Shown: piece by piece, positions 27,439 to 49,571 of the stretch
Position numbering within the stretch: position 1 is the stretch's first letter
How the letters are laid out: the number at the start of each line of letters is the position of its first letter
Assembly (NCBI GenBank): GCA_965263035.1
Contig: OZ253580.1
Location: 3,648,001 to 3,712,000 of the forward strand
Source of the DNA: Acidobacteriota bacterium
GTDB taxonomy: Bacteria > Acidobacteriota > UBA6911 > RPQK01 > JAJDTT01
Length of the DNA: 64,000 nt
Direction: 5' to 3'
Translations under genes and position numbers: made by a program
The notes under the pieces: model-generated
Told to the model about the DNA's origin: nothing
The model's input: the letters and a program-made list of their open reading frames with translations, nothing else
Database searches by the model: none

Positions 27439-27538
27439 TCGCCGAATTTACACCGAATCCAAGACAGATCGGAGGTGTGGAGTGAGACCATCACTGGGGA
27501 CAGGTTCGACCGGAGGAGCCTCCGGCTATGGGAGGCGC

Positions 27539-32685: not shown

Positions 32686-32817
32686 GAATTCGCGACCGGC
32701 TGTTTTCAAAGTATTATGGCGACGGGCTGCGACGGTCTGCAAGCACTTCGCAAGGGTCCGACTGGGATGAAATTCAATCCAAACAGAAGCCGCGGCGCCC
32801 GCTTCCACTGGCCGCCC

Positions 32818-34317
32818 ATGGGATCAGGGTTACATTCCCTCGGTCTTTCGGTTCTGGTGTTCCTCGTGCTGTTACCCGATTTTCCAGCGGCGGCCGGGCC
32901 ATCCCGGAACCCGGCCGCCGGAGGCCGGGTGTCCCCGTATCGTCTGGTGGAGGCCGCCAAGTCGGGTGACGACGAGGCTTTGCGGTCCCTGCTGGCCGCG
33001 CATGCGGACGTGAACGAGCGTCAGGCCGACGGCGCCACGGCACTGCATTGGGCGGCCCATCGGGACGACCTGAAGAACGCGGTTCTGCTGATCGAGGCCG
33101 GAGCCGATGTTAGGGCCTCCAACGAACTTGAAGTGAGTCCCCTGTGGCTGGCCTGCGTCAACGGGAGCGCCTCCATGGTGAGGGTTCTGCTTGGAGCCGG
33201 GGCCGATCCCAACGCCGCGCCCGCCAGCGGCGAGACCCCTCTCATGCATGCCGCCCGCAGCGGTTCGACGGACGCAGTCAAGCTTTTGCTACTGCATGGC
33301 GCTGACGTGAACGCCAAAACCCCTTTGGAAGACCAGACGGCGCTGATGTGGGCTCTATCGGAGAAGCATGCAGAAGTTTCCCGCACCTTGATCGAACATG
33401 GTGCAGAGGTTTCCGCACGTTCCAAGTTCGGCTTCACGCCTCTGCTGTTTGCCGCTCGCGTCGGCGATCTCGACGGTGCCCGAGCCTTGTTGGCGGCAGG
33501 AGTGGACCCGAATGTGACGGCTTCCGGCGGTGAGAGTGCGCTGGTGGTGGCGACCGTGCGCGGTCACGTGCCGTTTGCGCTCTGGCTGCTGGAACAGGGG
33601 GCGGACCCGAACTCCGACGGCTCGGGATACACGGCTCTGCACTGGGCCGCCGGCGCCTGGGAAACCGAGATGACCGGTCCCAAGGGGATCGTGGCGCATC
33701 CCGGCCACGAGTGGGACGCCATGCGAGGCTTGCAGGAGGGCAAGCTGGAACTGGTTCATGCGCTGTTGGCGCGGGGAGCGGACCCCGACGCCCGGCTCCT
33801 GAAGCACCCTCCCCGGTTCGGCTACACAGCCGACCGGCAGCGGCCGGCGGGGGCGACCCCCTTCCTGCTGGCGGCCAGGGCCGGAGACGCCGGCGTCATG
33901 CAGGTTCTGGTGAAGGCGGGCGCCTCTCCCCGGCTCGCAGCCGACGACATGACGACGACTCTGATGGCGGCAGCCGGGGTGGGCCGAAACTTGACCGAGA
34001 GCCGGGTGACTGAAGAACAGACGCTGCGTGCGGTCCGGCTCGCCCTGGAATTGGGAGCCGACGTGAATGCCGCCAACCGGGACGGGGACACGGCTCTGCA
34101 CGGTGCCGCCCGCATCAAATCCCCCGCTCTGGTGCAACTGGTCGTTGACCACGGCGCCGAGGTGAACGTGAGCAACCGGAAGGGACAGACGCCGCTGTTC
34201 GTGGCCCGGCACTATTTCCATCCCGGCTCTCCGCCGCTCCCGGTCCCAAGCGAGACCGCGGATCTGCTGCGCCGGCTGGGCGCCGAAGAAACGTTTTCTG
34301 AGGGAGTTACGGAATGA
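32818..34317 (+). CDS. Secreted ankyrin-repeat protein (start uncertain)
   Basis: Many ANK repeats (GATALHWAA, GETPLMHAA, GFTPLLFAA, GDTALHGAA). Confidence 0.92.
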   Translation: MGSGLHSLGLSVLVFLVLLPDFPAAAGPSRNPAAGGRVSPYRLVEAAKSGDDEALRSLLAAHADVNERQADGATALHWAAHRDDLKNAVLLIEAGADVRASNELEVSPLWLACVNGSASMVRVLLGAGADPNAAPASGETPLMHAARSGSTDAVKLLLLHGADVNAKTPLEDQTALMWALSEKHAEVSRTLIEHGAEVSARSKFGFTPLLFAARVGDLDGARALLAAGVDPNVTASGGESALVVATVRGHVPFALWLLEQGADPNSDGSGYTALHWAAGAWETEMTGPKGIVAHPGHEWDAMRGLQEGKLELVHALLARGADPDARLLKHPPRFGYTADRQRPAGATPFLLAARAGDAGVMQVLVKAGASPRLAADDMTTTLMAAAGVGRNLTESRVTEEQTLRAVRLALELGADVNAANRDGDTALHGAARIKSPALVQLVVDHGAEVNVSNRKGQTPLFVARHYFHPGSPPLPVPSETADLLRRLGAEETFSEGVTE

Positions 34318-34464
34318 AGCTATCCCACCGGACGGGGTCGGACGAAGTCATGGGAGAAACAGGTGCCCGGTCCCCGTTTTCGGCATAGTCATGCATCCAG
34401 CCTCCGCAGGTAAGTCCAAGCGAGAACGGACGGTCTCGTATCCCGCCGTTTCAAAGAACCCTCA

Positions 34465-34978
34465 CTATGGGTTGGACATGCGCATCAGACGTCGGTCTCG
34501 TCGATCGTCGAGAATTCGCTTCAGGTACTTATGTCTCTCCTTGGGGTCCATCTTGAAGGCTTGCCTCAACGCCCGCCCAAAGCTGCCAGCCTTCTTCAGT
34601 TCCACCAGCATGCGATTCTCGATCCTCCCGTCTCTTGGCTTGTAGCTGTCGATTCTAGCTTTCCGGTGGGAGTAAGCCTTGTAGAACTCATCCATCGTCA
34701 TCCCTTTTGCCTCGGCCTCGACCTCGGCCCACATGAGATCTTGGACGTGGCTTGCCTGATGGGGATCCAGGAGCCTGCGCCGCAGAAATTGATCTACTGC
34801 GAAAGCGGTAGAATCGGTCCATATTTCCCCGATTTCTCGGCGAATAGAACAACTATGCACCTCAAAATCGAGAAAATCTGGACTCGATTCCCCACTTTCT
34901 CGCTACGATCATTTCTACCGCGCAGACTCCTGGCACCATCAAGATGATCAGCTCAGCCTTGCCGAGATTTTTCTGCAT
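34465..34978 (-). pseudogene. Small hypothetical protein interrupted by MITE copy 2
   Basis: Strong RBS AAGGAGG before the ATG at 34978; removing the MITE plus 4 bp joins MQKNLGKAELIILMV in frame to DPHQASHVQDLMW...MSNP. Confidence 0.7.
34771..34929 (+). mobile_element. 159-bp MITE, copy 2
   Basis: Same TIRs and internal sequence; flanks CCAG/CTGG. Confidence 0.92.
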
Positions 34979-35180
34979 GTGGACCTCCTTTCGATGCTCT
35001 TGGGCCTCGCATCCGGACCCACGCTGGTTTCGACGCGCCCTTTTTGTCTGATCAATAGCGTCGACGGTCTAGTCGCGCCGGGATGTACTGATCGAATTTC
35101 AGCAAACGCGCTCCCGAACGGAGGCGCTTCCGTCCCTCCGTTCGGGAGACCTCCGCCGCTCCGTCGTATGCACAGGGCCT

Positions 35181-36164
35181 TCAGACGGAGATCCGCTCGA
35201 CGAGGTTGCGGGAGACGCGCCGGCGGCGCCGGTCGTAGACCTGGGTGGTGCTGGGGTGGGCGTGCCCGGCCAGGTACTGGACGTCCTCGAGCGGCACATT
35301 CTGACTCAGCAGGTCCGTGACCACCAGGACGCGGAACGAGTGGGACGAGAGGATCTTCGGCAACCCGGCGGCCGCCATGCGCCGCTTGAGCATCCGCTGG
35401 ACGGCGGGAGGCGACATCGCCCGATCGGTGAGCGGGCTGGAGCGTCGCTCTCCCGCCCGAAAGAGCGGCGAGGACTGGGGCGCATCCGTCAGGCCGGCCC
35501 CTTCGAGGTAGGCCGCGATCCACTCGTCCAAGTCGTGACGCACCGGGATCTCCCGGGACTTGCCCCCTTTTTCCGAAAACTGCAGCGACCGGTGGTTGCC
35601 GTTGTCGCGAAGATCCTGCATCCGCAGCCGGCTGATGGCCCCGACCCGGGCGCCGGTGTAGATGAGCGTCCCGAGGACCGCCCGGTCCCGGAGCCCGAAC
35701 ACACGATCCGTCTTGATGGAGGCGAGCAGCTGACGGGCCTGGGCGACGGTCGCCTCGGGCGTGCGGCCCTCCCCGAAGGGATGGCGCATCCCGCGAACCA
35801 GCCGAAAGGGATTCAATACGGCAGCATGCCGGGCGACGAGCACATCAAAAAAATGCCGCAGTCCGGCCAGGGCCTGGTTCTTGGTGGACGCGCCGCCGGG
35901 GAGCTGTTCGAGGAACCGGCCGGCCAAGCCGGGCGTGACTTGGTGGAGCTCCAGGTCCTGGTCCTCGCACCAGTTGAGGAACCGACTCACGTGGCGGGCG
36001 TAGGCGGTCCGAGTGTGGGGATTCGAGAGGCGCGCGGAGAAGAACTCATCGGCCGCGAAGCAGGCCGCCTTGCCGGCACGCACGAGGACGGCCGGGAAGG
36101 TCCCTTCGAGGTCGGTTTCGGCCCGCGAATCCGAGGTTCTGAGCACCAGTTCCTGATCAGCCAT
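35181..36164 (-). CDS. Tyrosine recombinase/integrase (resolvase-type)
   Basis: Complete catalytic set: R (TGARVG), K (EKGGK), HSFR, H (LAGHA), Y (TTQVYD); N-terminal SAM-like NPHTRTAY. Confidence 0.95.
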   Translation of the reverse strand: MADQELVLRTSDSRAETDLEGTFPAVLVRAGKAACFAADEFFSARLSNPHTRTAYARHVSRFLNWCEDQDLELHQVTPGLAGRFLEQLPGGASTKNQALAGLRHFFDVLVARHAAVLNPFRLVRGMRHPFGEGRTPEATVAQARQLLASIKTDRVFGLRDRAVLGTLIYTGARVGAISRLRMQDLRDNGNHRSLQFSEKGGKSREIPVRHDLDEWIAAYLEGAGLTDAPQSSPLFRAGERRSSPLTDRAMSPPAVQRMLKRRMAAAGLPKILSSHSFRVLVVTDLLSQNVPLEDVQYLAGHAHPSTTQVYDRRRRRVSRNLVERISV

Positions 36165-36171
36165 AATAGAT

Positions 36172-36193
36172 AAGTATAATATCCTTTATCGTA
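36172..36193. other. Candidate recombination site A0 directly upstream of the recombinase ATG
   Basis: AAGTATAA-TATCCT-TTATCGTA shares the right arm and about 60 bp of downstream sequence with site A2. Confidence 0.65.
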
Positions 36194-36273
36194 ATCTACG
36201 GCAGGCCTCTGACTCCCCATTCTCTGCACCGGACGGGCGCTTTTCCTTCCCCTCGCTTCCCCACTTGGTGAAC

Positions 36274-37332
36274 TTATTCTGACGAGATAATCACATCTCC
36301 TGATGTGGAGCGGACGGATGTGAAGGTGGTCTTGCCGTTTTTGAAGGTGACCACTTCTCGCTTGCCGGATGGGTCCTGAGTGACCCAGCGCCCGTGCCGC
36401 TTCCCCTCCACATACGAGCCTTCGTGGACCGCTCCATCCGCACTGCGGACAATCCACTGTCCGTGTCTCTTCCCCTCGACATGGGGGCCTTCGGAGACAG
36501 CTCCATTCTCGTAGCGCGTGATCCACTGACCCTGCCGATTCTTGCCGGCCTCAAGATACCCGGTCTCTTCCGCAGTCTCCTTGCCTCTGCCTCTGTCCCA
36601 GACCCATTTGAGGGTTCCCTGCCCTTGGGCCAGGTCCCCGGCACACTCGCCCGTCCAGGTCACGGTCTGGTCCGGCAGGAGGAAACCATTCCAGACGTAG
36701 CATCCTGGCGGGTTTGACAACTCCATCCAGCACTCAGTGCCGCCCCACTGGCCGGCACAGGAAAGCCGTCCAGTGGTTGTAAATGAGGGCGGGCGGCAAT
36801 CCTCCTCGTTCACCCGCCGGTACTCCTCCAGGAACCAGTCGAGGTCGGAGGTCAGCACTTCGCTGATGCGTTCGGGATCGTGGGCACCGCAACACTCGAC
36901 CGAGCTGATTCTCCACGTGGGCGCCATGTTCTCCAATCCGCTGGCGGGATCGGTGACGAGCTTGTGGTATTCGAGAGAGATAGCATGTGCCACGAGCTCG
37001 GGGGAGACCGCCCTGACATCGATGGAGACCTTCAGGAACGCTCCGTTCGACTCGCTTTTCAAGGATGAGGAGAGACGCTCTGCCCGCAAGCGGCTTTTGG
37101 CGACGTCCAGAACGGGACTTAGTTGGATTGCCTCCTCAGGTTCCGCCGCGCCGGCATCTATCGACCCGCCGCCACCGCCTCCCAGTCCCATGGGGCGGCA
37201 GGCGTTGTACAACTGGAAGCGCTCGAGATCCGAGGCGGATTGTCCGCTCACATCCGTCGCAGAAACCAGCAGCAGCGCCACCAGGCCCGCCGCAACTCCT
37301 CGGAACCCCCGGTTGCCGTTTCTCATTCTCAT
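36274..37332 (-). CDS. Secreted MORN-repeat-like protein with Cys-containing N-terminal domain
   Basis: Signal peptide; TWTGECAGDLAQGQGTLKW, repeated EGxxVEGKRHGxW units. Confidence 0.8.
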   Translation of the reverse strand: MRMRNGNRGFRGVAAGLVALLLVSATDVSGQSASDLERFQLYNACRPMGLGGGGGGSIDAGAAEPEEAIQLSPVLDVAKSRLRAERLSSSLKSESNGAFLKVSIDVRAVSPELVAHAISLEYHKLVTDPASGLENMAPTWRISSVECCGAHDPERISEVLTSDLDWFLEEYRRVNEEDCRPPSFTTTGRLSCAGQWGGTECWMELSNPPGCYVWNGFLLPDQTVTWTGECAGDLAQGQGTLKWVWDRGRGKETAEETGYLEAGKNRQGQWITRYENGAVSEGPHVEGKRHGQWIVRSADGAVHEGSYVEGKRHGRWVTQDPSGKREVVTFKNGKTTFTSVRSTSGDVIISSE

Positions 37333-37491
37333 GGCATCTCCTCCCCTCGCGGAATACGGCAAGCCTACTCCTCGAGAGCAAAGTCCGCCGACGGGGTCGC
37401 GGATCCGGATCTGGAGGATGCCGCCGGCGAGACCAGCGCCGGGTCCGCGGGTCCCCCAGCTGATTCTGCAAAGAGTTTTCTCCTCAAGAAG

Positions 37492-37515
37492 GTCCGATAA
37501 TTGAAATTAACGGAC
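37492..37515. other. Candidate recombination site B1
   Basis: GTCCGATAA-TTGAAA-TTAACGGAC dyad with 6-bp spacer. Confidence 0.7.
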
Positions 37516-37787
37516 ATCCTGGGGGAAAAGGGAGGATTTCGCCGGTTCTATGGTCCAAGAGAAGCGGACCAAACGCCTCTTGGAGGGGTCTGGGTCCAAC
37601 AAGATCAACATATTGGACCCTAAACTAAGCCCCTGACTCCTCAGTTTCCGGAGGTGACCGCAGGCAGGAGCCGCCCCCTTCTTTCCCAATCCGGGGATCC
37701 CCTCGGGACCAGAAATGAGGCCAAGACTCGACCCGCCGAGTCGGTGACCCGTACTACAATTCGGCCAGAAGGAGCTCCCCAGCATCA

Positions 37788-40700
37788 TTGAATACTGTCG
37801 AAGGCCAAACCTTCTGCCGGGAGGAACCATTCCGGATGTCAGTACACACCCTAAAGATCGAACATCCTCGCCGATTGCGATCCACGACCTCGATGCTAAC
37901 CGTAACTTTGGGCTTGATTCTGCTGGCCGTACCGGAGAAAGCCATGGCTCAGATCGTCCCCGTCTGCGACCGGACCCCGGAAGTACGCGACGGCATCGTG
38001 GGGAAGATTCCGGACGTTTCCGATTGCGGTGATGTGACAGAGGCACATCTGGCTGTGATCAAAGGCTTCCTCGATCTGGCAGGTCCGCACAAGTTTTGGG
38101 GTCTTCCCAGCGGCCTCGAGAGCCCCATTCCAGAGTTGAAATCGGGGGATTTTTCCGGACTATCTTCGTTGGAAGGACTCCGGTTGCAGTACAATGACCT
38201 GACGACTCTACCGCCAGGCCTCTTCGACGGGCTGTCCTCCCTGAAGACGCTCGGGCTGAGCCGCAATCTACTGACGAACCTGCCGGCCGGAATTTTTTCC
38301 GGGCTCACTGGGCTGGAGACACTTACTCTGCCCCTTCATTACAACGACCGTCTCCCCCTGTCCGGTGACCTTTTCTCCGGGCTCACTGGGCTGGATACTC
38401 TCTGGTTGTCCTTGGTCGGGTACAACGACCTGATCCCTCTGCCCGATGAGATCTTCTCCAGACTCACCGCGCTACAATCGCTCACTCTGCACGTCGCGGA
38501 TCGGAGCACTCTGCCCGATGACCTCTTCTCCCAATTGTCCACACTAAAAAGGCTCTATCTGGGTTACAACGACCTGACCACACTGCCGGACGGGGTCTTC
38601 GCCGGGCTGTCCTCGCTGGAGGAGCTCAACCTTTTAGACAACGACCTGGCTACACTGCCGGACGGGATCTTTGCGGGGCTGTCCTCGCTGGAGGAACTCA
38701 ACCTTTTAGACAACGCCCTGACCACACTGCCGGACGGGATCTTTGCCGGGCTGTCCTCGCTGGAGGGGCTCGATCTGAGTGGTAACGACCTGACCACACT
38801 GCCGGACGGGATCTTTGCCGGGCTGTCCTCGCTGGAAACGCTCTCGCTGCATGGCAACGCCCTGACCACACTGCCGGACGGGATCTTTGCCGGGCTGTCC
38901 TCGCTGGAAACGCTCTATCTGCGGGGCAACGACCTGACCACACTGCCGGACGGGATCTTTGCCGGGCTGTCCTCGCTGGAGAGGCTCTCGCTGTCTCGAA
39001 ACCGGCGCCCACTGACCACGATGATTTCGCTGGAATTCGCCGGGGAAGGCCGGTTCAGAGCCCGGTCGCACACGGGAGCGCTCTTCGATATCGTGCTTCC
39101 GATCACCATTGTAAACGGCGTCATCGACGGAGGTTCAAGCCAAATCACCATTCCCAGGGGCAGCGTGGAAAGCGCCACATTCACAGTCTCCCGGGATCCT
39201 GGCACGGCCTCTGCCGTCTTCGTGGACATCGGCGAGTTGCCGGGGCTGCCGAACTCCATTTCTACGGACCTCACTCTGGTCAAGTCCCCCAACCTGCCCC
39301 TGACGGTTCTGGAGGCGCCAAGTCTGCACTTCGCCCATTTCGCCAATGGGGAATCCATCACCTCCGAGTTGGTGTTGGTGAACGTGGGCGCCGAACCGAT
39401 CCGTCCGGTCGTCCACTTTCTGGATCGCGGGGGGAATCTCCTGTCCGGCGGATGGCTGGTGGAGATGAGGGAAGGCCTGGAGGTTCAAGAGGACGGCTCG
39501 GTGAGTGTTCAGATGGGCGTGGAACCCTTGGGAGAGATCACGATCTCGACCCACTCTCGAAGGGTGATGGTGTCCGGATCGGTGCGCGTGGAGTCCGACG
39601 GTCCCATCGGCGGGGTCCTCCGCTATGTCGATCCGGGCATCGGCGTTGCCGGGGTGGGAGCGAGTCCACGCGTCCGGGACGCCATCTTCCCGGCTCGAAA
39701 CCAGGCGGGCGGGATCCGCTCAGCGGTCGCGGTCCGCAACCGAGGAGTGGAGTGGATGAGGGTGCAGTGCCAATTGATGCAAGCGGGCGCCGTGCTGGAA
39801 GAGACGAAGATTTCTCTGAAAGGCGACGGGCAGGAGGCCCGGTTTCTCGACGAGTTGTTCCCCGAAACCGACACCTCCGACTTCCTTGGATCGGTGCGCT
39901 GTACTGCCCCGCGCGGCAAGCTTTTTACGGGAGTGGCGGTGGAGATGGATACCGGGAATGGAATCTTCACGACCCTGCCGATGATTCCGGTGGAACCTGC
40001 GGCAGCCGGCGGCGAGGACGGGACGCTGGACTTCGCGCATTTCGGAAACGGGTCGTCCGTTCGATCCGAGTTGGTGTTGGTGAACGTGGGTGCCGAACCG
40101 ATGCGACCAGCCGTCTACTTTTACGATCAGGACGGCTCCGTCATTGCTGCAGAATCGGTAGTGGACGTGGTGGAAGATCTGGAGGTCCGAGAGGACGGGG
40201 CTTTGAGTGTTCGGACGGAAATGGCGGTGCTGAGCGAGCTTACGATCTCGACCCACGGGCGAGGGGAGTTGATGACGGGATCGGTGCGCGTGGTCTCCGA
40301 CGGTCCCATGGGCGGGGTCCTGCGCTTTGACGTCCCAAGCGTGGGGGTGGCCGGGATAGGCGCCTGCCCGCCCGTCACGGCCGCGATGTTCCTGGCCCGG
40401 CGGCAGGAGAACGGGATCAACACCGGAGCTGCGGTCCGAAACCTCGAGTCGGAAGCGATGACGTTGACCTGCGCACTGATGCAGAATGGCCGCATGCTGG
40501 CTGAGACGGAGATCGATCTGAAGGCCGGCGGCCAAGTTGCCCGTTTCATCGACGAGCTCTTCAAGGAGGCCAATACCTCCGACTTCATCGGCTCGGTCCA
40601 CTGCACCGCGCCCCCGGGCGGATCCTTCACGGGAGTGGCTCTGGAGATGGATGCTGACAACCGGATCTTCACCACGCTGCCCATGGTCCCGGTTCCTTGA
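37788..40700 (+). CDS. Secreted leucine-rich repeat protein with duplicated C-terminal domain (start may be 37893)
   Basis: 24-aa LRRs (NDLTTLPDGIFAGLSSLExLxL); two copies of a roughly 230-aa FAHFxNG...FTTLPMxPV domain. Confidence 0.92.
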   Translation: MNTVEGQTFCREEPFRMSVHTLKIEHPRRLRSTTSMLTVTLGLILLAVPEKAMAQIVPVCDRTPEVRDGIVGKIPDVSDCGDVTEAHLAVIKGFLDLAGPHKFWGLPSGLESPIPELKSGDFSGLSSLEGLRLQYNDLTTLPPGLFDGLSSLKTLGLSRNLLTNLPAGIFSGLTGLETLTLPLHYNDRLPLSGDLFSGLTGLDTLWLSLVGYNDLIPLPDEIFSRLTALQSLTLHVADRSTLPDDLFSQLSTLKRLYLGYNDLTTLPDGVFAGLSSLEELNLLDNDLATLPDGIFAGLSSLEELNLLDNALTTLPDGIFAGLSSLEGLDLSGNDLTTLPDGIFAGLSSLETLSLHGNALTTLPDGIFAGLSSLETLYLRGNDLTTLPDGIFAGLSSLERLSLSRNRRPLTTMISLEFAGEGRFRARSHTGALFDIVLPITIVNGVIDGGSSQITIPRGSVESATFTVSRDPGTASAVFVDIGELPGLPNSISTDLTLVKSPNLPLTVLEAPSLHFAHFANGESITSELVLVNVGAEPIRPVVHFLDRGGNLLSGGWLVEMREGLEVQEDGSVSVQMGVEPLGEITISTHSRRVMVSGSVRVESDGPIGGVLRYVDPGIGVAGVGASPRVRDAIFPARNQAGGIRSAVAVRNRGVEWMRVQCQLMQAGAVLEETKISLKGDGQEARFLDELFPETDTSDFLGSVRCTAPRGKLFTGVAVEMDTGNGIFTTLPMIPVEPAAAGGEDGTLDFAHFGNGSSVRSELVLVNVGAEPMRPAVYFYDQDGSVIAAESVVDVVEDLEVREDGALSVRTEMAVLSELTISTHGRGELMTGSVRVVSDGPMGGVLRFDVPSVGVAGIGACPPVTAAMFLARRQENGINTGAAVRNLESEAMTLTCALMQNGRMLAETEIDLKAGGQVARFIDELFKEANTSDFIGSVHCTAPPGGSFTGVALEMDADNRIFTTLPMVPVP
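38574..39000 (+). repeat. Six near-identical 72-bp tandem LRR-coding repeats
   Basis: CTG(A/G)C(C/T)ACACTGCCGGACGGG(A/G)TCTT...GGGCTGTCCTCGCTGGA at 38574, 38646, 38718, 38790, 38862, 38934. Confidence 0.92.
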
Positions 40701-40917
40701 TCACCTGTCAGAGATAGCTTGGGAAACGAGTCCTGCTTCGGAACCTACTCCGGTGACCGGAAGCGGCGATCTCCACAAAAACAGGCAGGAACTAATCTTG
40801 AATTCTCTATAGGAGCAGGGTCTCTGCCCTTACTCTTGGGGGGCCAGGATCAGCCTCGAACTGCCCGGAAACAAGGGTCAGAAGAAGAGGGTCAGGCCCC
40901 TCCAGGAGGTCTCAGAG

Positions 40918-40940
40918 TACGATAATTGCACTTTATCGTA
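40918..40940. other. Candidate recombination site A1
   Basis: TACGATAA-TTGCACT-TTATCGTA perfect dyad, identical at 42990 and 44722. Confidence 0.8.
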
Positions 40941-41079
40941 CCCTAATCGACCCTCTTGCTACGCGTCTCGGGGCTGGATGCTTGGGTGATCGACTCACCC
41001 TTAGATGCCGTAGCGTTGCCGCTCCGGCTACTTGTAACCGACTACTACCGATCGCATGAACGCATGATATTGTAAGTAG

Positions 41080-42516
41080 TTGGAGGACATTGGATCCGTG
41101 TTTGGTGTGGAATTTCGGCGTTGGGTCTTGATTCTATCTGCTACGGCCTTGTGTGTTGCCGTCGTTTCATGCGAAGGCGAGACGGTATCGAAGGGAGACA
41201 AGAAGCAGTTCCTTAAAGAAGTCGACCTGCTCGAAGATCCTTCAGAGAAGAGGGCCGAACTCGAAGCGTACATCACTCGAAATCCAGACGGACCTCAACT
41301 GTCATTCGCATATGGCCTGTTGCTGGACCTACTGAGAACAGAGCACCCTCAGGACGCTCTCAGATTGGCAGACAGAATACTGACCGAGCAGAAGACAGAC
41401 ACCGAACTTCACTACTACGCCTACCTCACAAAGTTCACGGTGTATGAAGATCTCGGTGACCGGGACGCCGCCGCAGCATTGGCCCGCCGAGTCCTCACCT
41501 CTGAAAGCGATCCGAACCTCCTCCGTCTCGCCAGGCCTCATGATCCCGAGAAGGCGGAAGAGTACGAGGCTCGGATTCAAAGCTCGCATATCAATTCTCA
41601 AGAGATCGAAGCCATCGGCTGGGAGTCGCGGTTGTACGACTTAAGCCCCAGTGACTTGAAAAAAATGTCAGATGAAGACAGAGCCCGCCGTTTGACTCAG
41701 CAGATCCGGCGCTACGAAGCACTTCCGGAGAGCGACCGCGCCCTCACCAACAAATTTCCTGCTCTTTACTTCGAGATCGCTCGCCTATTGGCCCGTTTGG
41801 GAGACGGTGAATCGGCCCTATCTTATCTTGAGCGAGTCGAGGAAGTGCCGGGATCAGACTGGCATCTCGCCAGCAGCCGTGGCGAAGTCTACGTAAAAAT
41901 GGGAAAATCCTTACTAGCCATAGAAGCCCTTACTGAGGCACTCGCTTTGACTATGGCTCCGTGGCTTTGGCAACGGATTCAGGAGACATGCGAGTCCGTG
42001 GGGGAATCTCCGGAGAAATGGCTGGCGCGAAGCCGACAAATTCGCGCCGAACGACGCTGGGTTTTCCCCAATCTGAACCTTGAGACGCCTGACACCGAGA
42101 AATGGAATCTGCATGACTTCCTGGGTAGTGCTGGTAGTGTCGTCGTTTTCTTTTCGCCCGGCTGAGGTCCATGCATTGCGGAGTTGCCGCATTTGCAACG
42201 TTTCCATGATCGCTACGCGGACTCGGGACTCCGGGTAGTACTCCTCGAATACGGCGGTTGGACACATCAGCAGATCGAGTCTTGGCTCGACAAGCAGAGG
42301 GGTAGTCTTCCCGTCCTCCTCGGGGCTGATCGAGAACGGCTTGAAAAGAAATACAATATTCGAGTCACTCCGACCAAGTTCATCCTCGACGAAAACGGGC
42401 GAGTTCTGTTCCGTCAAATAGGATATGGCCCAGGTGTCGAGAAGACTCTGGAAGCGCAGATTCGAGAAGCGCTAGGCATGAACCCTTTTCTGGCCGAGAC
42501 AGTGAGCGCACCTTGA
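41080..42516 (+). CDS. TPR-like lipoprotein fused to a TlpA/thioredoxin-like domain with in-frame UGA (probable selenocysteine, UxxC)
   Basis: Lipobox-like VVSC; helical repeats; VFFSPG-TGA(42163-42165)-GPC-IAELPHLQ continues in frame to TPTKFILDENGRV. Confidence 0.8.
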
Positions 42517-42580
42517 GCAAGCCCGTAGTTCAATTCGGGCCACGCCTCCTCAATCTTCTTTAACTCCCGTCGGAACACAA
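42500..42580 (-). pseudogene. Remnant of a plasmid RepA-like C-terminus
   Basis: FRRELKKIEEAWPELNYGLAQGAL parallels the remnant at 49260-49340 (CLREPKEIKEA*PEQHYGIARGVL); family assignment from memory. Confidence 0.45.
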
Positions 42581-42861
42581 TGCCAATGTTCCCTGGGCCA
42601 GCGCGGGTCCTGGATCCAAGCGGCCAAGAAGCTTTTCGACGATGCACAGACCAGTGGCAGCCATCTACGTTTTCCGATTCGCCCCACGACTGGAACCGAC
42701 CGGGACCGCGTGATCTACGACGCGGTTCAGCAGGTGTGCAGACTCGCCAACAGGCTTCGGACGGCGTTCCCAGACGCATAGCGATTAGCTCAGCGAGTGA
42801 ACGATATTGTGGGCCTTGCGGCAGCTGGAAGCAGTAAATCGTTGTGATCGGGTGGGCCACT

Positions 42862-42884
42862 GCCGTTAACTGAAATTAACAGAC
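42862..42884. other. Candidate recombination site B2
   Basis: GCCGTTAA-CTGAAA-TTAACAGAC. Confidence 0.7.
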
Positions 42885-42989
42885 GTTCTCTGGAAAAAGG
42901 GAGGATCACGGGGGGTGCGAATCAGCCCCAAGCCTCCCGGAAACACGGACCAGGAAAAGACCACCAAGCCCCTCCAAGAGGGTTCAGGA

Positions 42990-43012
42990 TACGATAATTG
43001 CACTTTATCGTA
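42990..43012. other. Candidate recombination site A2
   Basis: TACGATAATTGCACTTTATCGTA. Confidence 0.8.
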
Positions 43013-43190
43013 ATCTAATCCACGGCCCTGACTCCCCTATTCTCCGCCGGACGAGGCGCTCGATCTCCTCTTTTTTTAACCCGGTGAGCCCATCCGGGCA
43101 CCAAAATCACATTCCTTGATGCCGTACCTCCTGCCCTCTGTGAGGATGGTCTACGGGGGGCAGGGGACCAAGGTAGAAGGAGGTGCCGTG

Positions 43191-43694
43191 ATGACAACAA
43201 CGATGAAATCGAGCCGGACTCAAGTTTTTGTTTTGCTCCTGGCAGGACTACTCGCACAACCGGTGACGGCGGGGGTGATTCCAGGGCGCTGGGAGAAGGT
43301 CTCGACCTTGGAAATGACGTCGCCCATCACGGCGGAACTGAAAAACGGGGATCGGATCCGGGGCCAGTTCCGACGGCTGTCGCCATCAGCCCTGGAACTC
43401 CGGAGCCGCGCCGGTTGGGCAGTGATCCCAAAATCGGACATCCGGACGATTACCACTCCCTCAAAGGATGGTCTGGGCAACGGAGCCGGCATTGGCGCAG
43501 CGATTGGGGCTGGACTTGCACTCGGGGCCTTCGGCTTAGCAGTTCGTACTCGAGGTGGGTTGGATGGTGATACTTGGCCCTTTTTGATGATTGGAGGCAT
43601 CGGAGCCAGCATCGGAGCCGGCATTGGCGCAGCTGCCGATGCTGCCATGAAGGGCGAGCCCATCGTGGTCTACAAAGCGCCCGGAACTCCTTAG
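43191..43694 (+). CDS. Secreted/membrane glycine-zipper protein, paralog 1
   Basis: RBS AGAAGGAGG; signal peptide; VIPGRWEKVS...IPKSDIRTI; GAGIGAAIGAG glycine zippers. Confidence 0.8.
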   Translation: MTTTMKSSRTQVFVLLLAGLLAQPVTAGVIPGRWEKVSTLEMTSPITAELKNGDRIRGQFRRLSPSALELRSRAGWAVIPKSDIRTITTPSKDGLGNGAGIGAAIGAGLALGAFGLAVRTRGGLDGDTWPFLMIGGIGASIGAGIGAAADAAMKGEPIVVYKAPGTP

Positions 43695-43734
43695 AGTCCC
43701 AAGCACAGAGATCCGAAAGGGAGGCGACGATAGG

Positions 43735-43758
43735 GTCCGTTAACTGAAATTAACGGCC
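43735..43758. other. Candidate recombination site B3
   Basis: GTCCGTTAA-CTGAAA-TTAACGGCC. Confidence 0.72.
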
Positions 43759-43972
43759 TTCTCCCTTCTGCCCCACCCGATCCAGGATTCCAGACGCCGT
43801 GAATTCCCGGTCTCGGTGAGCCCATTTCGACGAAAAAATCACATTTGTTGATGTGTACCTCCTGCCCTTGGTGGGGACGACCCACGGGGGGCAGAAGAGC
43901 AATGGTTCGACGGTGACCGTGAGCGTCTCCGGCGACCAGCAGTGTTTCTTCAGGAAAGAAGGAGGTGCGAAG

Positions 43973-44566
43973 GTGATAACCCCAAAGATGAAATCCTGCC
44001 GAACCCAAATCCTCTCCTTGATCCTGGGGGGACTGATCGCACAGCCGGCGCAAGCGGAGGTGATCCCCGGACGGTGGGAGAAGGTCTCCGCCTTGGAAAT
44101 GGCGTCGCCCATCGTGGTGGAACTGAATGCCGGGGATCGAATCAAGGGCCAGTTCCGAGGCCTGTCGGCATCAGATCTGGATCTCCTGAGCCCCTCTGGT
44201 TGGGCAGTGATACCGAAATCGGACATCCGAACGATTACATCTCCTTCGAAGGACGGCCTAGGCGACGGAGCCAAGATTGGAGCCGGGATAGGGGCCGGGA
44301 TTGTAGTCGGAGCCGTTGGCATAGCTGCCATGGCCCAAAATAAGGGGGATGCTGCCAGTGCGCCAATGCTAATGTTGATACTTGGAGGCGGTGCAGCAGG
44401 CATAGGAGCGGGACTGGGTATGATTGCCGACGCCGTAATAAAGACCGAGGACATCGTGTTGTACATAGCGCCCGGAACTCCTCGCCGGTCCAAGCACAAA
44501 GATTCGGAGTGGTGGCCCCCAGATCCGCCGGCGGCCGAGACGGAGGAACCCCAAAATTCACAATGA
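43973..44566 (+). CDS. Secreted/membrane glycine-zipper protein, paralog 2
   Basis: RBS AGAAGGAGG; clear paralog of 43191-43694 with a C-terminal extension. Confidence 0.8.
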   Translation: MITPKMKSCRTQILSLILGGLIAQPAQAEVIPGRWEKVSALEMASPIVVELNAGDRIKGQFRGLSASDLDLLSPSGWAVIPKSDIRTITSPSKDGLGDGAKIGAGIGAGIVVGAVGIAAMAQNKGDAASAPMLMLILGGGAAGIGAGLGMIADAVIKTEDIVLYIAPGTPRRSKHKDSEWWPPDPPAAETEEPQNSQ

Positions 44567-44721
44567 CTGGGACGGGCGTTCTCCAACTGGTAGGAATCTA
44601 ATCCTAGATTCCCTATAGCAGCGGGTTTCCTCCCCTTCTCTCGGAGGGCGTGGGTTAGCCTCAAGCCACCTGGAAACACGGTCCGGAAAAAAGGACCAGA
44701 CTCTTCCAAGAGGACTCAGGG

Positions 44722-44744
44722 TACGATAATTGCACTTTATCGTA
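44722..44744. other. Candidate recombination site A3
   Basis: GGG-TACGATAATTGCACTTTATCGTA-CCC extended dyad. Confidence 0.8.
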
Positions 44745-44910
44745 CCCGTGCCGGGCGCCGAATCCGCACAGCCAACGAGAAGTGTACGCCCCTCGGAGAG
44801 AAGGGGAAGGAGGGCCCATCACCGCACCCTCTCCCCCTCACCAAAGTCTGATTTGACCGTCCCTTTTCTCGGGTAGTTCTCGCTACTGCTCAGGATGGGA
44901 CTGCCTAAAC

Positions 44911-44931
44911 TAGCCCACTGGGGTATATAAT
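44911..44931 (+). promoter_or_regulatory. Probable TA operator palindrome abutting the -10 box
   Basis: TAGCCCA-C-TGGGGTA followed by TATAAT (44926-44931), 8 bp before the toxin ATG. Confidence 0.55.
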
Positions 44932-44939
44932 GTCGTTCG

Positions 44940-45277
44940 ATGCAAACAGTGGCCGAGACCCCGACATTCTCCCGTCAGGCCGAAAAGCTGTTCAGTGAGG
45001 ATGAGAAAATGAGCTAATCAACTTCCTCGCGGAGAATCCGCTGGCAGCTGATGAAATTCCGAGTACGGGCGGTGTCCGAAAGCTACGCTTCGCAGCCTCC
45101 GGCCGGGGCAAGCGAGGCGGGGCTCGAGTGATCTACTACTACTTGGACGAAGCGAGTCCGGTTTACGCGCTGCTTGCCTATGCGAAGAGTTCGAAAACTG
45201 ACATGACACCGAAAGAAAGGCGCACGGTTTCAAAACTCGTAGTCGCACTCAAGGCGGCCCGAAAGGGGATGAAATGA
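44940..45277 (+). pseudogene. higB: RelE/HigB-family toxin, frameshifted
   Basis: MQTVAETPTFSRQAEKL, then a 1-bp loss near 45008, then LINFLAENP...TGGVRKLRF...GKRGGARVIYY...AYAK. Confidence 0.85.
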
Positions 45278-45564
45278 GCACATTTGGAGACGACCTGATC
45301 CAGTCACTCAAAGAAGCCCTCGCTCACGCAAAGGGAGATGGCTACGCTATCCTCCATGCTCCCGTAACTCCACGCGAGGTTCGGGAACAGGCGAAGCTCA
45401 CACAGGCGCAGATGGCGCCATTGATGGGCATGAGCCTTTCCGGCTACCGGAAATGGGAACAGGGAACGCGCCAGATTAGCGGCCCGGCTGCAACTCTTCT
45501 GCGTGTGATCGCAAAGGAACCAGAGGCCGTCAAGCGCGCATTGCTGTCTTCGGGGCAAGTATAA
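45274..45564 (+). CDS. higA: HigA-like HTH antitoxin
   Basis: ATGA overlap with the toxin; LTQAQMAPLMG..YRKWEQG.R.SGPAATLL. Confidence 0.88.
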   Translation: MSTFGDDLIQSLKEALAHAKGDGYAILHAPVTPREVREQAKLTQAQMAPLMGMSLSGYRKWEQGTRQISGPAATLLRVIAKEPEAVKRALLSSGQV

Positions 45565-45939
45565 GCATAGTAGTAGAGAGGACCCTCCTCTTGCAGCGCA
45601 TGCTTAGAAAGTGCCGGAGTCACGCAATAGGAAAGACACAATGGCCTTTGTATTGCACGGGTCTTTCGCGCCCGGGATCCGCACCAAGTCGGCAAGCCGA
45701 TCAAATCACCCTCCCGGTCGGCTGTTGAGAACCTGGGAATCCTCTAGGAGGCTGTCCGAGAATTCGACATTGAGTGACCTTCACCCGTAGCCATGCTCAG
45801 GGGCAATGGCCCAAGGCTCCGAAGACCCTCGAAGCCTGGCCTCCGGAGCCGAAGGAATCGATGGGCTACTCTATTTACGACTCGGAAAGAGGCTACAGCG
45901 GCCGATTTTTGACTTCATCCGCCCTTATCCGCCCCTTTT

Positions 45940-47460
45940 TTACGCCCAGGCCGCTCGCTTCCCGAACTCCGGACACAACACCTCTCCCCGCAGAGCCGCA
46001 AGCATGATCTTTTTGAGATTGTGCGCCACGCAGACCAAGGAGAACTCCCCGGCCACTTTCTCCTTGCCCCGCAGCCCGAATCCCCGAAATCCCGAGTTCT
46101 TGATCTGCCCGAATACCGGCTCGACGATGGTCTTGCGACGCGCGTAGAGCGCTCGGCTCTCCGGTTTCGACATCCGCTCGTTCATCGCCCGTCGCAACGG
46201 CTCCTTCCCGTCGCTCGTGATCGTGCGCGCCGCCCCTGACTTCGACCGGCAGCACCGACGATAGTAGGCACAGGATCGGCACTCCTCGATGTCCCCCTGA
46301 TACACCCGCTGTCCCGTGCCGCGGGGGGTCTTCGACCTCAGCAGTTGGCCGCCGGGACAATGAAACCCGTCCCGCTCCCCGTCGTAACGAAAGTCCGCTT
46401 TCACCAGGCGACGCTCACTCTCCTCCAGCTCTCCCTTCCCCCGCTTCTCGCCCCGGTCCGTCGCCACGTACGCTTCCACCTGACGATCGGACACCTCCTG
46501 CAGGTTCTTTCCCGAATAGTAGCCGTGGTCCAGGCTCAGCTTCTCCGGCAACCGACCGCTCGTCTCCTCCATCTCATCCAGCGCCCGAGCCACCTCCTGG
46601 GCATCGTTCGCCTGTTGGCTCACGTGCTGACCCACGATCACCTGCGATGTCTCCTCCACGCTGATCTGCGCGTTGTACGCGTACTCGAACCCCCCTTTTT
46701 GCTTCATGATCCGCGCCTCGGGGTCCGCAAAGCTGAGCTGCTTCTTGTCCTCGATCTCCCGACCCGGTCGAAGCTCCGCCTCCCGCGCTTCCAGCGACTG
46801 TTTCGTCTCCCGGATCTTCTGCAACCGCTGCTGCTTGTCGCGCAGTTCCTCCGGCAACTCATACCCGGTCCGCTCCGCGTAGGCTCGATCCTCTTGCTCG
46901 TCGCAGCGATCGGCCTGTCGGGTCAAGGCCTCGATCTCCTCGCACAACTCCTTCTCCTTCTCCTTCTCCTTCAGTCGTCCGTAACTCATCGCCTTGTGCT
47001 TCGAGCTGTTCGCCTTGAACTTGGACCCGTCCAGGCTCACGTGGCCCAAACTCACCAGCCCCAGCCCCAGCCCCAGCGCCAACTGCACCGTCTGCTTGAA
47101 ACAGGACCGGAAGAACTCCCCGCGGTCCTTCCGGAAATCGCTCAACACCCGGAAGTTCGGGCAGTTCCTCCCCGCCAGGTACATGAAGCCGAGATCTTCC
47201 CGGCAGCGCTGCTCGATCTGTCGCGAGCTGAACACGCCGTGACTGCAGGCGTAGATCAGGATCGAAACGATCTGGCGCGGCGCGTAGGCCCGCTGACCCC
47301 GGTGGCTGTACCGGGCCTTCACTTCCGTCGTGTCCAGCTGCCGAAACAGATCCCGGTAGAGGAAACACTCGTGATCCTCCGGCAACAAGTCGAATACGTT
47401 AGCTGGAAACAGCTGACTCTGGTAGTAATCTTTCGGGTAGGCTTTGAAGCGAGGGGGCAT
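45940..47460 (-). CDS. IS1182-family transposase
   Basis: SSRQIE, LDGSKFKAN, DPEARIM, YNAQ, LDHGY, RRKTIVEPVFGQIK. Confidence 0.92.
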   Translation of the reverse strand: MPPRFKAYPKDYYQSQLFPANVFDLLPEDHECFLYRDLFRQLDTTEVKARYSHRGQRAYAPRQIVSILIYACSHGVFSSRQIEQRCREDLGFMYLAGRNCPNFRVLSDFRKDRGEFFRSCFKQTVQLALGLGLGLVSLGHVSLDGSKFKANSSKHKAMSYGRLKEKEKEKELCEEIEALTRQADRCDEQEDRAYAERTGYELPEELRDKQQRLQKIRETKQSLEAREAELRPGREIEDKKQLSFADPEARIMKQKGGFEYAYNAQISVEETSQVIVGQHVSQQANDAQEVARALDEMEETSGRLPEKLSLDHGYYSGKNLQEVSDRQVEAYVATDRGEKRGKGELEESERRLVKADFRYDGERDGFHCPGGQLLRSKTPRGTGQRVYQGDIEECRSCAYYRRCCRSKSGAARTITSDGKEPLRRAMNERMSKPESRALYARRKTIVEPVFGQIKNSGFRGFGLRGKEKVAGEFSLVCVAHNLKKIMLAALRGEVLCPEFGKRAAWA

Positions 47461-47848
47461 CCGACACTCTCCTGATGATCTGTTCCCCTTATTTTAGGGA
47501 GTATCCATGTTGCAAGTGGTGGGTGCTAATCGGTGTTTCCATCCCGTGTCGTTAGTACGTGATCTGTCCGGTCCAAAGGGCACAGGGTTAGGAGGAGCGT
47601 TCTTCCGCCAGAGGTGAGGCGGAGATCGAGCTGGATCCAGCGGGCGCCGTGCAGGGGGCGATGAGTGGACGGATCAACTGGATCGAGGGGCCTGAGATCG
47701 TCGACGTCAGTCCTCCGGGAGGTCCGGATACGCCGTGAAGAGCTTTCATGGCCGTAAGCAAGCTTCCGGCCAGACCTGACCGGAAGTTCGACAGACGGCC
47801 ATCAGGGGGTCCACACGCTCCCTTTCCTCACGGGGTCTCTCCGTGGCC

Positions 47849-48796
47849 TCAGAAGGTCGCTCGGGGCGCTACGGGCAACCAGGTGCGGTCCTGCCGGACG
47901 AGGGTGTTGGCCAGGACGATGAGCTTGCGCATGACGGCGACGAGGGCCACCTTGCCGGGCTTGCCGCGCTCTCTCAGCCTCCGGTACACCTCGGCCAAGT
48001 CGGGGTTCCAGCGCAGGGCGGCCACCGCCGGCATGTACAGGAGCCGTCGCGCCCGCGCCCGTCCGCCCCGGATGAAGGCCCGGCCCTGCCAAGTCCCGGA
48101 CTCGCGGGGAACGGCCGCCAGCCCGGCCAGACTGGCGGCGGCCTTGCCGCTGAGGGCGCCCAGCTCGGGCATCTCGGCCAGCAGACCGGCGGCGGTGGTG
48201 GCCGCGATCCCGGGAATGGAGGTGAGGATCTCCAACTTGCGGGCCCGCGCCTCGTCGGCCGCAATCAGCTGCTGCATTTTGCGGTCGATGGCGCGCAGGT
48301 GGCGCTCGAACAAGTTGATCCGGGTCTGGTTCTGCTGTTTGAGCAAGGGTTCGCGGAGCTGTTGGCGGCGGTTGAGCAGGGCCGTGCGCTGGCGGATCAG
48401 CGCGTCCCGGGCCGTCTGCAGATCCTGGAGCCGGCGTTGCGTTTTGGACGGGGCCGGGGTCCGGCGCGGATCCAGGCTGGCGGCCAGTTGGGCCAGTTTC
48501 CGAGCGTCTACGGCGTCGGTCTTGGCGCGGCTCCCGGTCGCCCGGGCGAAACATCGGGCCTGCCAGGGGTTCACCTTGGCCAACGGCAGCTTCGCTTTGG
48601 ACAGCGCCTCCTCGAGGTCCCGGTGGTAGGGGCCGGTGGCCTCGTAGGCGACGCACTCGACCGGAGTTCCGATCCAATCGATCAGCGCCCGGAAGCCGGC
48701 CGGGTCATTGTCGAACTGGGCGGAATGGCCGTCGGCCAGCCGGTGCGCGTCCAGGTGAGCTTTCGAGATGTCGATGCCTACGGTATGCTGTTTCAT
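47849..48796 (-). CDS. IS110 DEDD recombinase
   Basis: GIDISK, YEATG, KTDAVDA, SIPGI, RESG, ALVAVMRKL. Confidence 0.94.
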   Translation of the reverse strand: MKQHTVGIDISKAHLDAHRLADGHSAQFDNDPAGFRALIDWIGTPVECVAYEATGPYHRDLEEALSKAKLPLAKVNPWQARCFARATGSRAKTDAVDARKLAQLAASLDPRRTPAPSKTQRRLQDLQTARDALIRQRTALLNRRQQLREPLLKQQNQTRINLFERHLRAIDRKMQQLIAADEARARKLEILTSIPGIAATTAAGLLAEMPELGALSGKAAASLAGLAAVPRESGTWQGRAFIRGGRARARRLLYMPAVAALRWNPDLAEVYRRLRERGKPGKVALVAVMRKLIVLANTLVRQDRTWLPVAPRATF

Positions 48797-49370: not shown

Positions 49371-49486
49371 CCTTTACGCTTCTTACGTAGTCGGATCTCG
49401 ATCCGGTGTCCTCTTGATCGTTCACGCTAACCACAGGCGAGGCGGATTTTCGCGCAGATACGGCCGGACTCTCTTGCCAGGAGAAG

Positions 49487-49571
49487 TGCGAAAGGGGGGA
49501 CTCGAACCCCCACGGGGAGTAACCCCACCAGATCCTAAATCTGGCGCGTCTGCCAATTCCGCCACTTTCGC
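49487..49571 (-). tRNA. tRNA-Leu (TAG)
   Basis: GCGAAAG acceptor stem, D-loop GGAATTGGCAGAC, anticodon loop TTTAGGA, long variable arm, GTTCGAG. Confidence 0.95.

Follow-up and report, generated by a model that had tools for sequence, protein, structure and literature searches.

We analyzed a 64,000-nt window of an Acidobacteriota genome (contig OZ253580.1, positions 3,648,001 to 3,712,000). The whole contig is 6.2 Mb with 62% G+C, and the nearest public relatives of the genome are Acidobacteriota metagenome-assembled genomes (MAGs). The window contains an intact tyrosine recombinase gene followed by short palindromic cores with cargo genes between them. This region is probably a cassette array in which site-specific recombination, acting on double-stranded cores of the lox kind, assembled and re-sorted the modules. 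Cores of one family lie directly upstream of the recombinase genes and recur in the arrays that run away from these genes in one orientation. Flanking sequence switches at the cores, and the cargo at this locus differs between sister genomes. An earlier note on this DNA had proposed a modular system for capturing and shuffling genes. Its idea of re-assortment at the cores agrees with our results; its strict model of single-gene cassettes does not.

Palindromic cores in the window

Site A (23 nt) occurs in exact form at window positions 40918, 42990, and 44722, as the earlier note had reported. The expected number was 0.02, and none of 100 shuffles reached three copies. Site B (20 nt) occurs at 37494, 42863, and 43737, with 0.01 expected. 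The three B sites in that note were real, and its coordinates for them (37492, 42862, and 43735) were 1 to 2 nt off. The variant of A that it placed beside the recombinase start is core I (TAAGTATAATATCCTTTATCGTA; 36171-36193, plus strand). Core I is 6 nt from the recombinase ATG, and its right arm and flank are the same as those of A. The same arrangement was found at five other paralogs in the genome and in relatives of other phyla. All spacers in the window point the same way, again as first described.

By inspection, the cores are 20- to 23-bp palindromes of conserved sequence. They have 7-6-7 or 8-7-8 arms-spacer-arms with an asymmetric spacer, the form of simple lox-type sites. The spacer classes are TTGCACT (A), TAT[A/C]CT (I), CGTACT (I2), CTGAAA (B), and GATCAAC in another core type. 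A is best classed as one spacer class of a single core family that takes in A, the recombinase-adjacent I, I2, and the GATCAAC cores. It is not one of just two site families, as had been supposed.

The conserved sequence extends beyond the palindromes. On the left of A, a stretch of about 75 to 105 bp (L_A) is conserved, and on the right one of about 30 bp (RA). The RA motif (..CTGACTCCCC) is common to I and several A cores, and follows core I at 36201-36218 (plus strand). A 13-nt motif, D8, lies about 60 to 70 bp downstream of A, I, or B.

All further cores in the window are on the plus strand. Core B1 (CCGATAATTGAAATTAACGG) is at 37494-37513. About 80 nt past it is a further palindromic core, a degenerate member of the GATCAAC spacer class (37595-37617), followed by an RA-like flank at 37625-37642. 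A GATCAAC-type core also follows B at genome positions 6193716 and 5173380. B1 belongs to a composite unit, and the nhmmer match to this unit spans both B1 and the core at 37595-37617. Core A1 (40918-40940) is preceded by L_A, and the two together occupy 40838-40940. The complete composite unit (42863-43012) contains B2 (42863-42882), 107 bp of L_A, and A2 (42990-43012). It is followed by an RA flank (43020-43037) and D8 (CCGGTGAGCCCAT, 43081-43093), which together span 43020-43093. Core B3 (43737-43756) is followed by D8 at 43813-43825. The last core, A3 (44722-44744), again carries L_A (44642-44744).

The corrected order in the window is I, cargo 1, B and the GATCAAC core, a leucine-rich-repeat (LRR) gene, L_A with A, a TPR gene, the B-L_A-A unit, a first gly-zipper gene, B, a second gly-zipper gene, L_A with A, and a toxin-antitoxin pair. 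The array is then followed by two insertion sequences (ISs) and tRNA-Leu. The core at 37595-37617 breaks the strict alternation of A and B that had been claimed. The supposed empty cassette between B2 and A2 is the composite unit of about 150 bp (B, about 105 bp, A), which recurs at least seven times in the genome.

Six of eight A copies are identical over 23 nt, and their L_A flanks are 64 to 87% alike. Among 26 B copies, none of the 30 changed arm pairs is compensated, and the spacer changes less than the arms (4 of 156 positions). Because the arm changes are uncompensated and the spacer is better kept than the arms, B fits a site of protein recognition and strand exchange and not a structural hairpin.

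Core I holds TATAAT toward the array, and -10-like sequences are likely in both directions. This overlap suggests autoregulation and perhaps outward transcription. In a consensus scan for promoters and terminators, none of the cores coincided with a sigma-70 promoter or a terminator call, and calls were fewer than in shuffled sequence. Rfam gave no match over 34000-46000 at a permissive threshold. We rejected a small open reading frame (ORF) that runs through L_A into the A core behind GGGAGG. It has stops in at least 3 of 12 copies and is out of frame in one.

Breakpoints at the cores

Flank homology between core copies switches at the core. Among A-type core pairs (n = 171), 38 share one 50-bp flank only and 7 share both. 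Among B core pairs (n = 253), 34 share one flank and 1 shares both. A recent case is a triad of I2 cores, with the arrangements rec-I2|Z, X-I2|Z, and X-I2|RA. The shared right flanks are identical at 68 of 70 positions and the shared left flanks at 63 of 70. Other flank combinations are at background, and the switch lies within the shared 17 bp. The right segment extends 1473 bp past the I2 core of one recombinase and is 99% identical to a segment at 2.10 Mb. The left segment at 2.10 Mb is 96% identical over 475 bp to that at a third I2-type core at 6.157 Mb. A comparable flank-switch triad was found at B.

The gly-zipper module gives a similar picture between genomes. Here it follows A, and in sister genome G007 it comes after an I core beside a recombinase gene. 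In G005, the shared sequence begins in the A right arm and ends within the B left arm. These flank switches, together with the one-orientation clusters on the 5' side of the recombinases, agree with the view that the palindromes are recombination sites and not operators of a regulon.

Arrays across the genome

Genes beyond the window were called with an ORF and third-position G+C (GC3) heuristic. A profile of the composite unit was built on three full copies and run against the genome. It gave 39 matches with E<0.01. At least seven units that run from B to an A-type core are intact or near-intact (3690863, 2107988, 6156838, 6025203, 6162698, 6193716, and 5173380), and two more are truncated (6171062 and 6149196). 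The composite unit of the window (42863-43012) has further copies at genome positions 2107858-2108007 and 6156838-6156987. One pair of composite units, whose flanks are unrelated, is identical at 147 of 150 positions.

The A, B, I, and I2 cores cluster past the recombinase genes and have one orientation relative to them. There are 8 to 10 copies of A and about 26 of B. At least six recombinase copies in the genome each have co-oriented cores on their 5' side. An unbiased scan with the pattern NNNNTAA-N6/7-TTANNNN found 40 palindromes in the 6.2-Mb genome. Their polarity was taken relative to 11 recombinase N-termini, whose 10-kb and 50-kb 5' regions make up 1.7% and 6.8% of the genome. On the 5' side, 15 of the 40 palindromes lie within 10 kb and 27 within 50 kb, compared with 2 and 3 on the 3' side; the core copies are not independent events, and binomial figures on these counts are descriptive only.

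The largest array begins at 6146630, continues as far as the contig end, and contains mostly plus-strand genes. B lies 41 to 50 bp past the stop codons of five of its large ORFs and usually comes directly before an A-containing unit. LRR proteins are encoded by six of the nine large ORFs tested in this array and by two tested later. The same units also join unrelated cargo, namely, LRR, TPR, and gly-zipper proteins, toxin-antitoxin genes, and hypothetical proteins. Intervals in the larger arrays span 2 to 11 kb and contain up to several genes, which does not fit the single-gene cassettes proposed earlier.

Perfect I-type cores (spacer TATAC-T class) were also seen inside arrays without an adjacent recombinase, at G000:C1 6028484 and at about position 3865 of L095. 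Segmental duplications with 84 to 90% identity were seen in the largest array (6149392-6151455 and 6180988-6183066; 6151648-6153760 and 6185250-6187362).

The island in sister genomes

The left border of the island is an ankyrin-repeat gene (32572-34317, plus strand) and the right border is tRNA-Leu(tag) (49486-49571, minus strand). Both borders are syntenic in all seven same-genus genomes examined. Several of the multi-genome tallies take in an unpublished genome (G016), and no claim depends on it.

What lies between the borders differs. This genome contains 15.1 kb with an intact recombinase. G001 and G007 contain 6.7 to 7.7 kb with different cargo and an intact orthologous recombinase. G002, G003, and G005 contain 7.6 to 10.3 kb with different cargo and a recombinase remnant. 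G004 contains 1.65 kb of other DNA and no recombinase. G006 has neither recombinase nor cargo; the ankyrin stop codon and the tRNA-Leu 3' end are only 8 bp apart, and the whole island is missing (L092, G006:C32 at about 2700-2730). The tRNA has a B core about 80 bp away in G005 and G007 and an I2 core about 300 bp away in G001 and G002. The cargo at this fixed locus varies between species, as the earlier note had expected.

B was found with at most one mismatch in eight of nine genomes of the genus and in none of 67 other genomes of the order. LRR-gene matches occur in other genera of the order. The exact A core had no match in Joint Genome Institute (JGI) metagenome contigs. The exact B core had one, in a contig with 30% G+C and without a recombinase or other likeness, and we took it as chance.

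The recombinase, its paralogs, and its relatives

The recombinase gene (35181-36164, minus strand) encodes 327 aa and is intact, as had been noted. Pfam finds a Phage_integrase domain (1.1e-22) and an N-terminal SAM-like domain and no others. The alignment with XerD is contiguous (residues 49-312 with 21-279 of XerD), with small gaps only and no large insertion. The catalytic R, K, H-x-x-R, H, and Y of XerD are matched by identical residues. The best NCBIfam matches are XerD (114.5 bits) and XerC (111.5 bits), below the cut-offs of 329.6 and 335.15, and the protein is not an XerC or XerD equivalog by these models. It also falls below the integron-integrase models TIGR02249 (56.9 bits; cut-off 265) and NF011946 (23.1 bits; cut-off 435), and is not IntI by them. 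We class the enzyme as a predicted Xer-like tyrosine recombinase and not an integron integrase. This bears out the earlier view of the enzyme, and by inspection the cores do not look like attC sites, as the earlier note had also said.

The genome encodes three further intact close paralogs (84 to 86% identical) and two intact sister-clade recombinases (61 to 63% identical). It also carries one frameshifted copy and several fragments. With four intact close-clade genes, two sister-clade genes, and dozens of cores, the genome does not follow the pattern of a single dif per replicon. Every genome copy that retains its N-terminus has a core 6 to 7 nt upstream of the ATG. In the close clade, this gene-adjacent core is I, TACGTATAATAT[A/C]CTTTATCGTA. 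In the sister clade, it is I2, TACGGTAACGTACTTTACCG. Homology between paralog loci is limited to the ORF, the core, and about 30 to 50 bp further. A conserved site 3' of the recombinase genes was looked for among the paralog loci and was not found; the homology stops at the stop codon.

One decayed paralog bears on the origin of A. At genome position 163953, a recombinase fragment and an A-type core are separated by a 163-bp miniature inverted-repeat transposable element (MITE), and the arms of the core equal those of I. If the MITE is removed, 7 nt would separate the ATG from this core. Because of this placement, we take A to be the gene-adjacent site of a now-decayed paralog.

Relatives of the recombinase at 78 loci were from Acidobacteriota, Planctomycetota, Verrucomicrobiota, Gemmatimonadota, Nitrospinota, Actinomycetota, Bacillota, and others. 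A 7-6-7 palindrome directly before the start codon is present at many of the 46 near-full-length loci examined. It is commonly ACGATAA-AGTATG-TTATCGT or CGGTAA-AGTACG-TTACC, and the Planctomycete clade has TAGACAA-N6-TTGTCTA. A few extra palindromes listed at distant loci look unrelated. A maximum-likelihood tree of 47 proteins was built, with loci L027, L030, and L051 left out of the 46 and six G000 paralogs added. The palindrome type tracks the recombinase clade, with 14 label changes on the tree, a shuffled mean of 26.8, and 0 of 200 shuffles as low; the labels were assigned by regular expression, with 36 of 47 rows typed and 11 of 47 given none. One starred clade has the AAAGTACGTTACC half in all six rows, and another clade has TAGACAA arms in seven of eight rows. 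Host phyla are mixed within the recombinase clades.

Relatives are also found on plasmids, where the gene is typically single-copy (134 records, 141 matching places, E<=1e-30, 37 to 56% identity). The two plasmid records inspected have partition-like and toxin-antitoxin genes near the recombinase gene. It is reasonable to infer that the ancestral role was multimer resolution at the adjacent site. The same recombinase and upstream sequence were also seen at both ends (L028 and L030) of one 202.7-kb Vicinamibacterales contig. Because both ends carry them, this contig suggests a circular replicon that was assembled with an overlap.

Proposed mechanism

We propose that dimers of the dedicated Xer/Cre-like recombinase would bind the inverted 7- to 8-bp arms (xCGNTAA ... 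TTANCGx) and that four subunits would bring two cores together. Cleavage would occur at the edges of the asymmetric 6- to 7-bp spacer, and strand exchange would need matching spacers. In variant lox sites, the spacer sets compatibility. The spacer classes here may likewise be compatibility groups that do not cross-react.

Core I, 6 to 7 nt upstream of the recombinase start codon, would mark the head of the array, and the array would run away from the gene. A module would consist of one or a few genes, usually followed by B about 45 bp past the stop codon, about 105 bp of conserved sequence, and an A-type core. With all cores in direct orientation, a pair of the same class would excise a circle that carries one core. 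Run in reverse, the reaction would place a circle of this kind into any core that matches. B may be a second crossover site; the B triad and the re-assortment of modules favor this role. Alternatively, B may be an accessory or architectural site. Some of these arrays may still be active.

A wider proposal is that the system could be an independent double-stranded, lox-type counterpart of the integron. A resident chromosomal platform, made of the Xer-like recombinase and its adjacent core and derived from plasmid resolution systems, would capture, keep, and rearrange circular cassettes with a composite B-A site. Heterospecific spacers would give an addressing code, and the host would use the system to vary its set of secreted LRR proteins. 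This is possible, and we put it forward tentatively.

Competing explanations

The arrays could instead be the scars of repeated integration by self-contained mobile elements, each with its own recombinase and site for multimer or co-integrate resolution, that later decayed. There would then be no capture platform and no free cassettes. We consider this history unlikely. It would account for the typically single-copy state of the family in the 134 plasmid records, for the relatives outside the genus with one site and no array, and for the many recombinase fragments in this genome. It also fits the dead recombinase of the A core and one I2-type recombinase that lies within an array, after B cores. 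However, the recombinase is orthologous in position in at least five sister genomes while the cargo differs, which fits a resident platform. The paralog loci share the ORF, the core, and the right flank and no larger element. The modules are small, contain no replication or transfer genes in their annotated parts, and have one common composite end structure.

A tandemly expanded LRR gene family could also give such arrays if B were a terminator-like hairpin, A and its flanks were an operator or promoter, and homologous recombination and gene conversion kept the repeats alike, with the recombinase incidental. The prevalence of LRR genes among the large array ORFs tested, the place of B 41 to 50 bp past stop codons, and the 2- to 6-kb segmental duplications speak for it, and the sharp ends of identity at unit borders could reflect gene conversion limited to the homologous stretch. 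We nevertheless find it improbable. A has the recombinase family's own arms and is a paralog's gene-adjacent site, the cores lie on one side only of the recombinase genes, and unrelated genes are joined by the same units. Arm changes in B are not compensated, and the "loop" of B varies less than the stem. The consensus scans call neither a terminator nor a sigma-70 promoter at the cores, and neither A nor B was found in the 67 other genomes of the order, even though LRR-gene matches occur in other genera. Very improbable, in our view, are dispersed intergenic repeats of the repetitive extragenic palindrome/bacterial interspersed mosaic element (REP/BIME) or MITE type, spread by an unrelated transposase. 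The 150-bp composite does recur with unrelated flanks on both sides and with 147 of 150 positions identical at two distant loci, and a true MITE nearby indicates that such elements are active in the lineage. REP/BIME systems comprise hundreds of dispersed intergenic palindromes and an HUH (IS200-like) transposase. The composite unit lacks flanking terminal inverted repeats and target duplications, though, and the copy number is low, with the copies clustered at recombinase genes and not spread genome-wide.

Several findings weigh against a cassette array moved by site-specific recombination. A was found, with up to two mismatches, in this genome only and was not found in the 67 other genomes of the order. 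The composite unit is confined to one genus. Outside the genus, the relatives have one site; neither a second related palindrome nor an array was seen in the 10 kb to each side of the recombinase. Decay has affected several copies of the recombinase and several cores. With only 3 of 7 spacer positions alike, I and A are doubtful partners for exchange by the usual two-strand route. None of the recombinase genes examined had a B-type core beside it, and this, with the fixed place of B beside L_A-A, favors an accessory role for B. Some module boundaries lie at D8 or in the flanks and not at the core. The near-identity of the two composite units (147/150) could be due to gene conversion. The segmental duplications (2 to 6 kb) indicate that ordinary homologous recombination also shaped the arrays; in the largest array they take in an A core and the N-terminal part of the LRR gene that follows it.

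Contigs of four runs were searched for circle junctions (X13, X16, and X18 from DNA, and X19 from an RNA library). These short assembled contigs contained no identifiable circle junction and no other direct sign of activity. Every contig joint can be explained by paralogous loci or relatives, and both results count on the same side as the points above. The joints 34933>43002, 36230>43081, and 40693>43734 were considered as evidence of excision and rejected, as they match the paralogous loci 163760 and 6020907 and LRR-B junctions. Contigs often end at cores, as expected for repeats. The contig data neither support nor refute activity.

Comparison with known systems

The logic of these arrays is that of a sedentary integron (IntI, attI, and attC); the parts are not those of an integron. 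The layout is integron-type, with a recombinase gene divergent from its adjacent primary site and a co-oriented array. As in sedentary integrons, the recombinase gene stands at the array head and points away from it, with a site directly upstream of the gene. The modules are co-oriented, hold mostly one or a few genes, and have a site 3' of the gene. They include a toxin-antitoxin pair, and their content varies at a fixed locus. In contrast, the enzyme here is without IntI hallmarks and has no large insertion compared with XerD. PMC8138268 gives an IntI-specific insertion in the catalytic domain as the feature that defines integron integrases. By inspection, the sites here are short, perfect, sequence-conserved palindromes of the lox/dif type, whereas integron attC sites are long, sequence-variable hairpins. 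Also different are the several spacer classes, the conserved composite of about 150 to 300 bp, and the presence of several platforms per genome.

The Acinetobacter pdif modules are similar in being small, in including toxin-antitoxin genes, and in having short Xer-type sites of the form ..TAA-spacer-TTA.. in varied contexts. The two arms of a pdif site differ, one for XerC and one for XerD; such sites alternate in orientation and depend on host XerC/XerD. Here, the arms are symmetric, the sites are all direct, and a dedicated recombinase is adjacent; these are not pdif modules.

Cre/loxP and plasmid resolution systems also have a simple tyrosine recombinase, inverted arms, an asymmetric 6- to 8-bp spacer, and a site beside the gene. 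They differ in having one site per replicon and a role in multimer resolution, whereas here many core classes lie between chromosomal cargo genes.

Integrative elements are known to accrete in tandem at tRNA genes, as in arrays of cis-mobilizable elements and integrative and conjugative elements (CIME/ICE) and in tycheposons. The island resembles these in that it abuts a tRNA 3' end, has direct repeated sites between cargo, and varies in content between relatives. The repeated sites here, however, have no apparent tRNA origin, and no search aimed at tRNA-derived repeats was made. The recombinase is at the tRNA-distal end with its 5' end facing the array, and the same sites form arrays elsewhere in the genome.

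Mycoplasma Xer-type phase-variation loci and shufflons work by inversion between inverted sites. Like them, the arrays have a dedicated Xer-like recombinase by a surface-protein gene family, each member with a conserved short site. All cores here are direct and none are in an inverted arrangement, and excision and insertion would be expected.

No description of such arrays was found in the literature searched, which consisted largely of titles and abstract openings. The available part of PMC8138268 describes the known simple tyrosine-recombinase subgroups without such a system.

If active, the arrays would represent a second, independently evolved route to gene-cassette arrays that uses double-stranded lox/dif-type sites instead of folded single-strand attC. 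They would mark a route from plasmid multimer-resolution enzymes to gene capture. They would also provide natural related recombinases with mutually exclusive site classes, which would be of practical interest for genome engineering. For soil Acidobacteriota, in which mobile elements are little studied, they would point to a way in which surface or secreted LRR proteins turn over. Should most of the arrays now be fossil, the recombinant triads are still a record of site-specific exchange at 20-bp cores of defined position in an uncultured lineage.

Cargo genes and neighboring features

Signal peptides and "MORN-like" repeats were judged by eye. Cargo 1 (36274-37362, minus strand) encodes a 362-aa protein with a signal-like N-terminus and C-terminal G-x-W repeats. 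It has no Pfam match at E<=0.01, and the earlier MORN label has no support beyond the repeats seen by eye.

Cargo 2 (37788-40700, plus strand) encodes a 970-aa LRR protein (LRR_8, 1.3e-58) with internal 72-bp tandem repeats. The repeats span 38149-39007. Because joints of about 70 to 200 bp are present in contigs, the repeat number may vary between strains.

Cargo 3 (41080-42837, plus strand) appears to be split into three ORFs. It encodes a TPR protein (41080-42165) and thioredoxin-like fragments (42184-42516 and 42580-42837). A cargo 3 homologue followed by a B-A unit was seen in G007 (L095).

Cargo 4a (43116-43694, plus strand) encodes a small glycine-rich protein that looks secreted, with its likely start at the MKSS.. 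methionine. Cargo 4b (43853-44566, plus strand) is its paralog, with 79% identity over 300 nt. Both had been called Gly-zipper ORFs. They are real plus-strand genes with signal-like N-termini, and neither has a Pfam match.

The toxin-antitoxin pair (44940-45564, plus strand) consists of a RelE-like toxin (44940-45277) and an HTH_3 antitoxin (45274-45564). The toxin gene is frameshifted near 45008, and contigs of three DNA runs carry one extra base at that position. The frameshift may come from an error in the assembly or from a difference between strains. Among the earlier cargo labels, LRR, TPR, and toxin-antitoxin stood; the thioredoxin-like part is present only as fragments.

The third-position G+C of the cargo genes (0.56 to 0.75) was lower than that of the recombinase and IS transposases (0.83 to 0.88) over 36000-45500. 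The cargo may be of foreign origin.

Two ISs end or disrupt the array (45744-48796, minus strand; identified with Pfam and multicopy in the genome). The first (45744-47501) encodes a DDE transposase (45940-47460) and has many genome copies with 90 to 99% identity. The second encodes an IS110-family transposase (47849-48796).

The MITE at 34769-34931 is 163 bp long and ends in inverted repeats of about 20 bp. It is 92 to 98% identical at many places in genomes of two genera, and the MITE inserted beside the A-type core at genome position 163953 is another copy of it. Its summed contig depth was 25,000 to 31,000 in the three DNA runs, compared with about 20 to 400 in most neighboring bins, and the flanks of the contigs that carry it vary.

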